Virus record (IMG/VR): IMGVR_UViG_3300024319_000005
Span: 1 to 64,000 of that record
Reading direction: 5' to 3' (one strand)
Origin: a virus
DNA: 64,000 nt
Under the pieces are notes generated by a model. That model was not told the DNA's origin, searched no databases, and saw nothing but the letters and a program-made list of their open reading frames with translations. Below, piece by piece: positions 1 through 4,375 of this stretch. Every line of letters begins with the position of its first letter. The first letter of the stretch is position 1. The position numbers and the translations under genes were made by a program.

Positions 1-3000
1 CTTTAGCTACTTCTGGTTTAAAATCAGTATCAAAATCTAATACATTATTAGGGTTAGCTTGTTTAAAGGTTGTTTTACCTAATCCTGGATGTCCCCAAAC
101 TATCTTATCTTCAGAAGTCAATTTAACTTCACTAGTTTTTGTTGTTGTTTTAGCTTTTTGTTTTTCTGCTTCTAAAAGAATAGCTTTTCTATTTCCATTT
201 TCTTCTCCCCAATTCATTATATTGCCTGATGTTACAGACATTATTTTATTGTCTTTATTTACAAGGTATTTTTTACCTTTATGTTCAACAATTTGTGCTT
301 CGCCTCTTTGTATAGCTAAGTTTCCAAAAATTTTATTTCTATCCTTACTGTCTTTTTTAAATACCTCAACTCCTTTTGAATTATAAATCTTATTACCTTT
401 TACAGTGTAGGTTTGTCTTTTTTTACCTCCAGGAGTATATGTTATTGTTTCAACCTCACTAGTTTGTTGTGTTGGTTTAGAAACTACTCCAGTATCATTA
501 TTAAAACTAAATTCTTCTTGCAGCCTTTGTTTTAAATAAGCATAAGTTTGAGGAGCTTTTTCTTTAAGCTTAGCTAATCCAGTACCAAAACCATCTTTAG
601 GAAATACTACTGATCTACCGTCAGCTTTTATTTTAGCTATGTCAGAATCAATAACATCTTTATTAGATTGTAAATCATTATCAGACATAAATGCAGCAGC
701 ACTGTTATTAGGTTGAAGCTTAGTAGCTATTCCAAAAACATTTTCATTATTCCTAATTTGTGCTTGTCCTCCTATACCTTTTCTTTGAGTATTATCTCCA
801 AATACATATATCTTATTTGGATTAGCTTTTACATCAGCATTAGTATATCTAGATACAACTTCAACCTCATTAGTTGCTTTAGAAGCTTCTTTATTAACTC
901 TAGTACCTATTTTAAATTGTCTAGCAATCAAAGGCATGTCTTGATTAACATCGTTATAAATAAATTTACTTATTGCTAAGTCTCCATTTACTTTTTTATT
1001 ATTAATCTGTGTAAAACGCATATTAATAGTACGATTACCTAGATTTTCTAATAACTCCTCACGAGTTAAATTACTAGCTTCTTCTACTCCATTACTACTA
1101 ATAGCATATGTATTAGTGTCGTTATTTCTTAAGATTATAACATCTGGATCTATTTGTATTTCATTTAAAACTGATATTGTAGTGTCTCCATTTTTTTCTG
1201 CTTTACTAAGTTTATCTTTTAAAGTAGCCATTACACTATCAACATCTTTAGCTTTATTTTTTCTCACAGGTATAGTAGCCCACGTAGTAGCACCGTTAGG
1301 TCCTACTGTAGGTATAACTTGAAAGAATTGATTTTCACTAATTTTATGATTAGGTAAAGGTATGTCTACTGTAGATGTTTCTTTAGTAGCACTGTGCTCA
1401 TATTTATTAGTTTCTGCATTAAACTTTACATTATCTATACGGAGTACTAAGGTACTATTTTCACCTACTTTTCTAGCTCTAGCAATAAACCCTGTTCTTA
1501 CATCATTTTTAACTTTTTTATTTATGTTTAATCTACCTTTACTTACTTGAGTTTTTATAATTACAGTTTCTCCTTTGTTTACTGCAGCTCTTAGTAATGT
1601 CATACTAACTTTACTATTACTTTTTGCAAAAGTTTTTCTGTCAGCTCTACCTAAAATAATTCTATTAGGTATTCTATCGTTTACACCATCCATAGAATCT
1701 CTTGATCCTGTACCAGGTTTTCCGTATCTGTAGTGTACTAATACATACTGATTCTTTGTTGTTCTCCAATTGTTATCTGGGTCTGGTTCTTGTAGTTCTA
1801 AATGTGCTTCTGTAATAGAGTCTCCATTTACATTTCTCCAATCTCTCATAGCTATACCTTCCGCTGTAAGGTTACCATTAATATCTGTAGGTAAAGAATT
1901 ATCATGTTGTTCTACTGGACGTCCATTTTCATCATAGACAACTTTACCATCTTTAAACAGAAGATCTTTAGAAACAGTATACTCATAATAGTTTTCTTTA
2001 CGTTGTTGAGGAGTATCATCAATATCTTCTGTAAATTCTATAGCTAATTGGTTTTTGCTTATATCATTTATTATTTTCTGTCTTTCTTCTGGTGACTTAG
2101 ATTCTTTAATTTTTTCTATAGTCTCTTTATCTGCCTTTGAATCTTCTGCTAATTTTACAGTTGCAGGTATACTTAAAGCAGGATTAGCTTCTACTTTCTT
2201 TTCTGCTCTTTCAATTGCAGCTAATAACTCTTTATTATTATTAACCATAGCAGCTAAATAAGGATTTGCTGCATTCCCACTAGCAGCCTGAAGAATAGTT
2301 CTTGCTTCTTCTGCTACATTATCACTACCTTCAGCTACAGCTTCTAGTGCTGCTAAATCAAGAAGTTGGTTTGCTTCCTCTATATTCTTTCGATCAGCCT
2401 CTCTAGCTTTTTGATCATTAGAACTAAATTTTACAGGGTCATCTGAAATTCTATTTACAAGATCTTGATTTTCTATATAGTCTAGATAATCAGAATTAAT
2501 ACTCTCAGCAAGTTTATTTATCTCTTGCTTATTATCTGTGTATGCTTTATCATTTGCTAAGTCAACATTAGTAACATCTTGATTTTCTAACGCTTTACTA
2601 ATTGAGCTCTCTATTTCAGCTATTACGTTTGGAGATATACCATTTTCTTTAGCCTTTTTTAATCTAGCTTTTAGAATAAGTAAATCAAAATCTTCTTTAC
2701 TTAGTTGTGTCTTATCTAAAGTATTTCTTTTCTTATTATATTTTTCTAGAAGATTTTTTGACTCAATTTTTCTATTATCTAATCTTGCTAATGCAGTATT
2801 TGCACCAGTATGAGCTGCTTTAAATTTATTTTCAAGTGCCGTCTTAGCTTTTGCATCTTCAATTCCATCAAACTTATCACTCACTTCTTCTAAAGCAGCA
2901 TTTGCATCTTCAGCTTGATCTTTTAACTCTTTGTGCCCTTTATCTATAGCAACTATATTTGACAAATCTACGTCTGTAACTTCTTCTGTTTTTGCTTTTG

Positions 3001-4375
3001 CTTCTGCTTCTGCTCTTGCTTTTGCTTTTGCTTCTTCTTCTAGTGTTAATTTATTATTAGTATAAAGAGGATCCTCAAAAGGTTCGTTAGCCCTAAGATT
3101 TTCTTCTTCTTGTGCTCTTGCTTCTTCTTCTTCTTTTGTTAAACCCCTATCACCAGGAGTACCATCACCAGGAGTACCACCAGGAGGAGTACCATCGCCA
3201 GTATTAGATTTACCTGTTAGTTTTTGTTTTTTCTTTTCTATTTCATCTTTCTGCCCTAAGAATTTATTAGCTAAATCTCCTATACCTTGAAATACAACTC
3301 CACCTAATGCACCTTGCACTATTGATTCCCAAAATTCATTGTTATCAAAGTAATCTTCCATTAGATCAGTTGGCTCTCCTGTAGCACTTGCCATAGCTTC
3401 TTTACTAAAAGCATACTGAGTACCTTCCTCAAAACCTTCAGATAGAGCTTGTGACCCATAAGATTTTAATCCAGTAAAAGCACTAGATACTTTACCACTT
3501 TTACTAGTCTTAGCAGCATTCTTAGCTAAGGGGTTACCATATATCATATCAAACTGTGCAAGATCCATAACAGCTAATGCCCAGTTTGCTTTATATACAT
3601 CAGAGGCTCCTGAAGCCGCTAAAGCTTCTGCTTCCTCCACTGACTTACCACTTGCTATTAAAGTGTCTCTAATCTCATCATAAGCCTGTGTAGCTTCCAT
3701 TCCTGATTCAATAGATCTAGATAAAGCTGTAGCTGAACTAGTGTTAGCAATACCTTTATACTTATTAAGTTTTTCCATTGCTCTAGCTCCTGTAGCTGTT
3801 TCCGTTAGTCCTCCCTTTATAGCTCTCTCAGCAGTTAGAATATTCTTAGCCATCTTAGGACTAGCTCCTTTCATAACGTTTAACAAACCTTTACCAGCAA
3901 GACCAGCTCCTCCCATAGATACTGCCATCATAGCAATAGTAGGACCAAACTGCTCTACAGTATTAGCCCAGAACTTAGGGTTAACTGCATCAGACCATTG
4001 TAATCCTTTGTCGTCAGAGGTAGATAGAATTTCAAAGTTTTCTGCTGCTGATTCTTTTAAATCATCTCCTGCAGTTTTCATAATATCCCACACAGTATCA
4101 TTGTAGCCTCTTTCGTCTCTCCATAGAGAAGCCATATTAGCTCCTGCCCCGAGTACTTCACCTACAATATTAGCACCTAGTCTAACTACAGAGTTACCTA
4201 GTGCTGCTGCGCCTGATTGATTTAAAGCTCTTTTATCTTGTATGTCAGTAAAAGAATCAGCTTGAGTAACTACCCCAGTACCTTCAAGAGTACCTTGATA
4301 GTTAGACTTTTTAGCCCCTACTCCTAATCCTGTCTTAGGGCTTATTCCTTTTTTTAATCTATCTCCTAAACTCAT
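1..4375 (-). CDS. Giant virion cargo/polyvalent protein, N-terminal part (>1457 aa, truncated by window edge); position fits the crAss-like virion RNA polymerase/cargo locus
   Basis: ATG at 4375 (MSLGDRLKKG...). Hand-translated segments at 4375-3250 and ~870-2 share one frame, and the track reports no stop-terminated ORF here. Contains a Gly/Ala-rich N-terminus with SEGFEEGTQY, a VFGDNTQRKGIGGQA module (~490-860) and Walker A GHPGLGKTT (~65-95). No RNAP catalytic motif was seen in the window. Confidence 0.85.
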   Translation of the reverse strand, partial: MSLGDRLKKGISPKTGLGVGAKKSNYQGTLEGTGVVTQADSFTDIQDKRALNQSGAAALGNSVVRLGANIVGEVLGAGANMASLWRDERGYNDTVWDIMKTAGDDLKESAAENFEILSTSDDKGLQWSDAVNPKFWANTVEQFGPTIAMMAVSMGGAGLAGKGLLNVMKGASPKMAKNILTAERAIKGGLTETATGARAMEKLNKYKGIANTSSATALSRSIESGMEATQAYDEIRDTLIASGKSVEEAEALAASGASDVYKANWALAVMDLAQFDMIYGNPLAKNAAKTSKSGKVSSAFTGLKSYGSQALSEGFEEGTQYAFSKEAMASATGEPTDLMEDYFDNNEFWESIVQGALGGVVFQGIGDLANKFLGQKDEIEKKKQKLTGKSNTGDGTPPGGTPGDGTPGDRGLTKEEEEARAQEEENLRANEPFEDPLYTNNKLTLEEEAKAKARAEAEAKAKTEEVTDVDLSNIVAIDKGHKELKDQAEDANAALEEVSDKFDGIEDAKAKTALENKFKAAHTGANTALARLDNRKIESKNLLEKYNKKRNTLDKTQLSKEDFDLLILKARLKKAKENGISPNVIAEIESSISKALENQDVTNVDLANDKAYTDNKQEINKLAESINSDYLDYIENQDLVNRISDDPVKFSSNDQKAREADRKNIEEANQLLDLAALEAVAEGSDNVAEEARTILQAASGNAANPYLAAMVNNNKELLAAIERAEKKVEANPALSIPATVKLAEDSKADKETIEKIKESKSPEERQKIINDISKNQLAIEFTEDIDDTPQQRKENYYEYTVSKDLLFKDGKVVYDENGRPVEQHDNSLPTDINGNLTAEGIAMRDWRNVNGDSITEAHLELQEPDPDNNWRTTKNQYVLVHYRYGKPGTGSRDSMDGVNDRIPNRIILGRADRKTFAKSNSKVSMTLLRAAVNKGETVIIKTQVSKGRLNINKKVKNDVRTGFIARARKVGENSTLVLRIDNVKFNAETNKYEHSATKETSTVDIPLPNHKISENQFFQVIPTVGPNGATTWATIPVRKNKAKDVDSVMATLKDKLSKAEKNGDTTISVLNEIQIDPDVIILRNNDTNTYAISSNGVEEASNLTREELLENLGNRTINMRFTQINNKKVNGDLAISKFIYNDVNQDMPLIARQFKIGTRVNKEASKATNEVEVVSRYTNADVKANPNKIYVFGDNTQRKGIGGQAQIRNNENVFGIATKLQPNNSAAAFMSDNDLQSNKDVIDSDIAKIKADGRSVVFPKDGFGTGLAKLKEKAPQTYAYLKQRLQEEFSFNNDTGVVSKPTQQTSEVETITYTPGGKKRQTYTVKGNKIYNSKGVEVFKKDSKDRNKIFGNLAIQRGEAQIVEHKGKKYLVNKDNKIMSVTSGNIMNWGEENGNRKAILLEAEKQKAKTTTKTSEVKLTSEDKIVWGHPGLGKTTFKQANPNNVLDFDTDFKPEVAK
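3140..3205 (-). repeat. Short tandem repeat encoding a GDGTPPGGTPGDGTPGD linker
   Basis: Repeated (cca)ggagtacca units on the + strand. Confidence 0.8.

Follow-up and report, generated by a model that had tools for sequence, protein, structure and literature searches.

A giant gene in a marine phage contig carries short, near-identical stretches of in-frame DNA between its small accessory modules, and each of these stretches is probably a phase-preserving recombination joint that doubles as a flexible tether. The gene lies at the edge of IMG/VR virus record IMGVR_UViG_3300024319_000005, of which positions 1-64,000 were analysed (the window, 64,000 nucleotides (nt)), starting at base 1 of a linear 99,222-bp contig (G000). 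Its open reading frame (ORF) is, to judge by its sequence, the cargo/virion RNA polymerase (vRNAP) polyprotein of a marine crAss-like phage. Homology to related phages has sharp edges at the joints, synonymous sites within the joints are frozen, and the same joint is found with many combinations of flanking sequence.

A first-pass annotation of the window had pointed out three linkers of the form T(S/N)EV(E/K), each leading into a separate module, and had proposed that they are either handles for recombination or protease sites. All three stretches are present in the minus-strand translation (KATNEVE at 880-860, PTQQTSEVE at 475-449, and TTKTSEVK at 145-122), and the modules are as it described them: DUF7831, a domain of ~104 amino acids (aa) after joint 2, and a domain with the Walker A sequence GHPGLGKTT after joint 3. 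The 15-nt pattern ACTARTGARGTTRAA, with at most one mismatch allowed, matches exactly three times in the window (122, 449, and 860, all on the minus strand), against a mean of 0.17 matches in shuffled windows, none of which reached three in 100 shuffles; its occurrence in the window is non-random. Extension past the left end of the window, which the annotation had recommended, leads to the other end of the contig and yields a fourth, variant joint, PTKQASEVV, at which the P-loop module ends and a further module, the fourth, begins. As read from these sequences, T(S/N)EV(E/K) would be the 3' core of an in-frame joint of 21-27 nt with a consensus encoding PTQQTSEVE. Joints and modules are listed in the direction of translation, in window coordinates unless stated otherwise.

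875-892, minus strand: K/A/S-rich tether upstream of the joint 1 core
860..874, minus strand: joint 1 core, ACTAATGAGGTTGAA, encoding TNEVE; homology to locus L022 begins here
476..859, minus strand: module 1, DUF7831, 128 aa, predicted macrodomain-like alpha/beta fold (Pfam match; AlphaFold2 (AF2) predicted local distance difference test (pLDDT) 95)
449..475, minus strand: joint 2, the canonical 27 nt, CCA ACA CAA CAA ACT AGT GAG GTT GAA, encoding PTQQTSEVE
137..448, minus strand: module 2 (modB), 104 aa, two predicted beta-beta-beta-alpha repeats (AF2 pLDDT 88.6)
137-151, minus strand: T/K-rich tether before the joint 3 core
122..136, minus strand: joint 3 core, ACTAGTGAAGTTAAA, encoding TSEVK
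2..121, minus strand: module 3, P-loop domain, first 40 aa, cut by the contig end and resuming at contig position 99221
99101-99075 of G000, minus strand: joint 4 (variant), PTKQASEVV; its 27 nt of DNA are 93% identical to those of joint 2

The two halves of the joint differ in character. A flexible, Q/T/P-rich tether makes up the 5' half, whereas the 3' half (EVE) merges into the domain that follows. In 107 DUF7831 homologues the fold is nearly always preceded by x-[VIL]-E, even in stand-alone proteins that start M-N-V-E, and V-E opens strand 1 in the AlphaFold models of module 1 and modB; according to these models the closing VE of the motif would thus also belong to the first beta-strand of both the DUF7831 and the modB domain.

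The first-pass annotation expected its linkers to coincide with domain boundaries and with breakpoints in related genomes, and comparison with relatives revealed that homology between phages does start and stop at the joints. Using blastn, loci L011 and L022 are 85% identical in nt to our sequence only from the first base of the joint 1 core to nt 26 of joint 2, and outside joints 1-2 the sequences are unrelated. In the L022 comparison, 30-nt windows beside the joints are 93-100% identical (28-30 of 30), mid-module windows are ~50% identical, and the joint retains 26 of 27 identical positions where mid-module DNA has diverged to this extent. A closer relative, P0003 (3946 aa), shares 80% aa identity with residues 1-1169 of the N-terminal ORF and is 87-89% identical from KRKGRR onward, and in place of four modules it has three others, with QQTSEVE and QQTSKVK ahead of two of these. 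In the corresponding DNA (L065) the flanks are 88-96% identical in nt; homology ends 8 codons upstream of the TNEVE core of joint 1 and resumes at KRKGRR. In our own protein the fourth module is followed by no more than the 5' half-joint QPTTQ, and the conserved KRKGRR of the HExxH part comes immediately after it. P0007, a giant protein only 24-33% identical to ours elsewhere, has a copy of the P-loop module with 85% aa identity, and that copy is flanked by KPTQTSEV and QPTQQDSEV. Among 1.84 billion representative proteins, 2049 homologues were matched; their alignments start at query positions 262-272 or 399-410 and stop at 399-417 or 507-526, all of them joint positions, and the modules are found anywhere along homologous proteins of 2,000-6,500 aa. 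Given the homology edges at joints, the module swap in a close relative, and the frozen synonymous sites described below, the recombination-handle branch of the earlier proposal is well supported. A denser array than that of our genome is seen in locus L014 (3478-4845), where one giant ORF packs four or more joint variants into 1.4 kb.

Conservation of the joint extends to its DNA. A codon-degenerate scan for PTQQTSEVE in IMG/VR (2.9 million viral contigs) returned 15 sites with Ser encoded by AGY and none with Ser encoded by TCN. All 15 read CCA ACA CAA CAA ACT AGT GAR GTN GAR, 14 of them with GTT, and no other set of codons for the peptide turned up in these contigs. Based on the codon usage of the host ORFs, the chance of these codons is 0.007 per independent site; AGY accounts for 35% of Ser codons. 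When searched as plain DNA, the 21-nt core was recovered in 31 copies from IMG/VR, in 95 metagenome stretches (many of them from Tara Oceans), and in two copies from prokaryote genomes, and all fetched viral, metagenome, and genome loci together contain 129 copies. The QQTSEVE frame lies within an open frame of at least 150 aa in 124 of these 129 copies. Considering 10 residues on either side, the 21-mer occurs with 77 different contexts upstream and 68 downstream, in 80 distinct pairings, and pairs of loci that share one side of the joint only do so downstream in 37 cases and upstream in 13. Identity also falls with distance from the joint in an ungapped comparison, which is suggestive only. 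Within variant joints, synonymous change in the six core codons is confined to the two GAR codons (8 cases) and a single case at GTT, and codons upstream of the core vary non-synonymously, as expected for the tails of different upstream modules. Because fourfold-degenerate sites are frozen beside modules that have diverged, protein-level selection alone is insufficient, and repeated crossover or gene conversion at the joint fits the pattern.

Several further observations concern the joint sequence itself. A reading of AGTGAGGTTGA as an internal translation start with a Shine-Dalgarno sequence was rejected, as no in-frame start follows, and so was a special role of the palindrome ACTAGT, of which the genome has 45 copies versus 33.5 expected. 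In three unrelated contigs (L067, L110, and L119) the 21-mer lies just upstream of an ATG, outside long ORFs, and is probably unrelated or due to chance. An in-frame copy (NQQTSEVE) lies towards the C-terminal end of an open frame of 343 aa on the chromosome of Chryseobacterium sp. 8AT (L047, 2502-2522); this could be a gene of a mobile element and a hint at the host group. The hexamer GCTAGC is absent from G000, where base composition predicts ~7 copies, and other CTAG-containing hexamers are not depleted; its absence may reflect avoidance of a restriction site.

The gene that carries the joints is divided between the two ends of the contig, as follows.

2..4375 of the window, minus strand: N-terminal part of the polyprotein, 1458 aa, cargo/ejection part followed by the cassette array; open frame running off base 1
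99221..92934 of G000, outside the window, same strand: C-terminal part (P0002), 2096 aa, HExxH region and vRNAP; open from the last contig base

Once the two pieces are joined, the full gene encodes ~3,630 aa, of which ~78 aa are missing between them; the size of this gap follows from complete copies of the P-loop module in P0007, a distant relative, and in locus L018. Since the P-loop module is split by the contig ends with only ~78 codons absent, the two pieces belong to one gene, and the record, although labelled 'linear, 89% complete', represents a permuted genome that is almost closed. An array of four small modules, in the order DUF7831 (macrodomain-like), modB (beta-beta-beta-alpha repeat), kinase-like P-loop domain, and fourth domain, lies between the conserved N-terminal part and the HExxH/RNA polymerase (RNAP) part. 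Four accessory modules together with an HExxH region and an RNAP place the protein within the range of two to 15 unrelated domains per phage polypeptide by which polyvalent proteins are recognized. Genes for a portal, a major head protein, and a virion protein lie upstream on the same strand. By analogy with phi14:2 and crAss001, for which the literature reports proteomics, the polyprotein would be present in the virion and ejected, and it is thus probably a giant RNA polymerase protein injected by the phage. A vRNAP/cargo block in the form of one fused protein exists in some crAss-like phages (preprint 10.1101/2020.03.07.982082; PMC10172136). Megablast against GenBank phages gave no match to the region, and a single IMG/VR query with the conserved upstream part retrieved no related loci.

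Module 1 belongs to DUF7831 (PF25176), with a match over residues 1174-1283 (E 1.6e-35, 122 bits versus a cut-off of 27, profile positions 4-117 of 118) that begins two residues past TNEVE. DUF7831 is a stand-alone gene in many phages, and our literature search found no paper on it. The first-pass annotation had guessed at a macrodomain-like fold. This has support at the level of the predicted fold, where VIA-align gave Z scores of 5.1-5.5 and a top ten consisting almost entirely of macrodomains (DarG, Poa1p, TARG1, and viral nsP3/X) with ~100-112 residues aligned; it does not extend to Foldseek, which gave nothing significant (best E 0.046) and template modelling (TM) scores of ~0.5 for the macrodomain rows. 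Like the macrodomains of DarG (5M3I), Poa1p (6LFQ), TARG1 (2LGR), and alphavirus nsP3, module 1 is modelled as a three-layer alpha/beta fold with two Gly-rich loops, in which alignment A1 has invariant G33, G36, G95, G97, and G99. Unlike them, its Z scores are only middling and it has no match to Pfam Macro. We therefore use macrodomain-like in the sense of the predicted fold only.

The remaining modules are less readily assigned. ModB is widespread in giant phage proteins, and 49 homologues align from the first residue of the module. Fold searches with modB gave no convincing match: WWE domains reached a probability of 0.72 but a TM score of 0.24, the best Z score (4.8) applies to half of the model, and Atlas gave no usable match. 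Module 3, of which L018 has a full copy, is a ~160-aa domain with Walker A (window 94-68) and Walker B motifs; a weak match to AAA_18 and deoxynucleoside-kinase-like neighbours in Atlas suggest a weak resemblance to small nucleoside/nucleotide kinases. P0006 and P0008 contain segments that share 72-74% identity with the fourth module, a conserved domain of ~90 aa after joint 4. Pfam searches with modB, the fourth module, P0003, and P0007 gave sub-threshold matches only. The modules may be delivered into the host, where they may have a role in counter-defence.

Downstream of the array, P0002 carries an HEAMH motif and, further on, DYDID (residues 1421-1425), a DFDxD-type catalytic motif whose aligned place reads DFDID or DFDVD in relatives. 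Residues 893-1444 of P0002 align to P0007 2646-3235 (E 4e-21), and P0007 2804-3232 in turn matches 6VR4 (phi14:2 gp66, E 2e-29), as does P0010 (E 2.5e-36). Homology of P0002 to 6VR4 is transitive via P0007, no direct match being found with phmmer. Nothing was found in sequence searches of the PDB with P0001, P0002, or a profile built from the HExxH region, and comparison of the C-terminal part with PHROGs and Pfam gave nothing useful. In an alignment of the HExxH part from 15 loci (A3) the His-Glu pair is invariant and five relatives have HExxE in place of HExxH; judging from this alignment, some family members may have an inactive or atypical version of the putative metallopeptidase. No match of the region to Pfam MPTase-PolyVal (PF18818), to other Pfam families, or to PDB chains was found. 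A second variable spot lies within the HExxH part, outside the window (G000 ~98,400-98,465, P0002 residues 253-273), where 59 nt in our genome correspond to an insertion of 1,388 nt (~460 aa) in L065/P0003 between NKITQE and KQSQD; P0004 and P0005 have related insertions at the same spot.

From these patterns we infer a mechanism of recombination at the joints. Each joint would separate autonomous accessory modules placed between the conserved N-terminal and HExxH/RNAP parts. Exchange would take place by homologous or short-homology recombination between the joints of co-infecting phages, or between paralogous joints inside one gene, and would add, delete, or swap whole modules. The essential polymerase downstream would stay in frame (phase 0) and each fold would remain intact, with the 5' half of the joint providing the Q/T/P-rich tether and the EVE half supplying what the models predict to be the first beta-strand of both modelled modules. 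No match to integrase or resolvase families (PF00589 and PF00239) was found in the 99-kb contig, which lacks ~0.2 kb, and this argues against a site-specific system.

A number of points weigh against this interpretation. Joints of 21-27 nt are close to the lower limit for efficient homologous recombination, and no phage recombinase was identified in the contig, where AAA_24/Sak4 was not detected. The outer edges of the array swap relative to L065 sit in a tether and a half-joint, not in full joints, and it does not follow from the edges against this closest relative that a joint is used in every exchange. GAR and GTA polymorphisms indicate that the joint is not absolutely fixed, and recent spread could be partly behind the identical joints. 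Finally, only two of 13 DUF7831 loci in an unbiased sample (L021 and L022) carry this joint, and modules therefore also move by other routes or joints. The PTQQTSEVE-type joint would accordingly seem to be one exchange standard among several. Cassettes bracketed by helices (KADIERRR... and ...AKYDAELAALE) occur in P0003 (~1175-1285), P0006, L033/L043, and L086, and the helix bracket is sometimes followed at once by a QQTSEVE joint, so that two bracket systems are combined. A much broader claim, namely that the joint is the selected standard connector of a pan-oceanic crAss-like pool, permitting recombinase-free in-frame exchange of at least 68 small domains in the ejected polymerase polyprotein of any of these phages, and with a peptide that doubles as the site where the embedded metallopeptidase would free the effectors inside the host, strikes us as doubtful.

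The other branch of the first-pass proposal makes the motif mainly a processing site, at which the HExxH metallopeptidase or another protease would cut between TSE and VE and free the modules in the capsid or after ejection. We regard this as unlikely, although a processing role could exist alongside that of a joint. The HEAMH motif is present and its His-Glu pair is invariant in relatives, but the second His is replaced by Glu in some of them, and the region matches neither the Pfam metallopeptidase family of polyvalent proteins nor any PDB chain. Within the motif Val varies least, and zincins generally favour a hydrophobic P1' residue, whereas the residue before Val varies (E, K, D, V, G) in related linkers. 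Fused crAss polyproteins have been viewed as 'likely cleaved' (preprint 10.1101/2020.03.07.982082) and zincin domains have been proposed as possible processors of polyvalent proteins (PMC5512222), yet N4 packages its vRNAP, which has a domain of this kind, in unprocessed form (PMC5512222), and our protein has no joint between its conserved N-terminal, HExxH, and RNAP parts, where cuts would be expected. Frozen synonymous sites are likewise not explained by selection on a protein-level cleavage site.

A passive interdomain Q-linker, inherited with its modules through duplication and recent horizontal spread, with sharp breakpoints resulting from selection for intact domains, would account for the continuation of identity from joints into modules, for the many different Q/T/P/S-rich tethers that flank these modules in other phages, and for a VE that is part of the DUF7831 fold even in stand-alone proteins starting M-x-V-E. 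It is nevertheless improbable, as the same 21 nt combined with 77 upstream and 68 downstream partners needs crossovers inside the joint, and as neither the near-identity of the joint beside half-diverged modules nor the lack of any second codon set among millions of viral contigs is what such a linker predicts. A third alternative, in which a sequence-specific DNA enzyme (such as a homing-type nuclease or site-specific recombinase) acts on the joint and starts gene conversion of the adjacent cassettes, is very improbable. Identity is highest beside the joints, the core includes the palindrome ACTAGT, and the fourfold-degenerate third positions of ACT and GTT are almost invariant when GAR positions vary, all of which would suit such an enzyme; however, the contig is without an integrase or resolvase match, ACTAGT is not unusual in the genome at the counts given above, the joint has no extended dyad symmetry, and the near-uniform reading frame of its copies inside ORFs is what a coding joint predicts. 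We thus retain the recombination joint as the preferred interpretation.

Parts of this arrangement are already known, including polyvalent proteins, fused crAss polyproteins, and recombination at in-frame motifs in polymorphic toxins and T-even tail fibres. As in the polyvalent proteins (Iyer, Burroughs, Anand, de Souza, Aravind 2017, PMC5512222), unrelated small enzymatic domains are strung together in a giant phage polypeptide with an HExxH region, a virion RNA polymerase, presumed delivery with the DNA, and a content that varies between relatives. That work describes architectures and a possible processing role of the zincin domain; unlike here, no conserved DNA-level in-frame joint is described in it, and the word 'linker' is absent. 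With the crAss-like vRNAP block (phi14:2 gp65-gp66-gp67, PDB 6VR4; crAss001 gp47/49/50, PMC10172136) our protein shares the DxDxD motif (DYDID), a transitive link of the catalytic region to 6VR4 through P0007, and a position adjoining the portal and capsid structural arm, but it differs in having four exchangeable, joint-bounded modules upstream of the HExxH part. In polymorphic toxins (CdiA VENN, Rhs PxxxxDPxGL) a short in-frame motif likewise borders variable modules exchanged by recombination, a cassette-recombination theme treated by Zhang et al. 2012 (PMC3482391). These toxins are related to our protein neither in sequence nor by family: ours is a phage virion protein with an internal multi-cassette array instead of a single C-terminal toxin, and it has no immunity genes. 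The Rhs junction motif doubles as a cleavage site, which mirrors the two readings offered by the first-pass annotation. In T-even tail-fibre genes, conserved in-frame motifs are reportedly the crossover points at which functional domains are swapped between phages; those domains are receptor-binding segments of one homologous protein, whereas here unrelated folds in an ejected polymerase polyprotein are separated by one standard 21-27-nt joint. Integron-like and other site-specific cassette systems differ in that the 99-kb contig has no tyrosine or serine recombinase match. Our literature search found no account of an in-frame joint with identical DNA in the vRNAP or cargo proteins of crAss-like phages.

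Should the joint prove to be a genuine site of exchange, any domain adjoining it would presumably be carried into Bacteroidota cells with the early polymerase. More than 100 giant ORFs and 68 different downstream sequences were recovered from ocean metagenomes with a 21-nt probe, and this set would constitute a catalogue of candidate injected counter-defence or takeover factors, including a macrodomain-like family without literature. The joints also suggest natural in-frame positions at which foreign domains could be loaded onto an ejected phage protein. Modular evolution through conserved linker DNA has long been proposed for the boundaries between phage genes; if our interpretation is correct, it would operate inside a single essential gene as well, with the reading frame kept.

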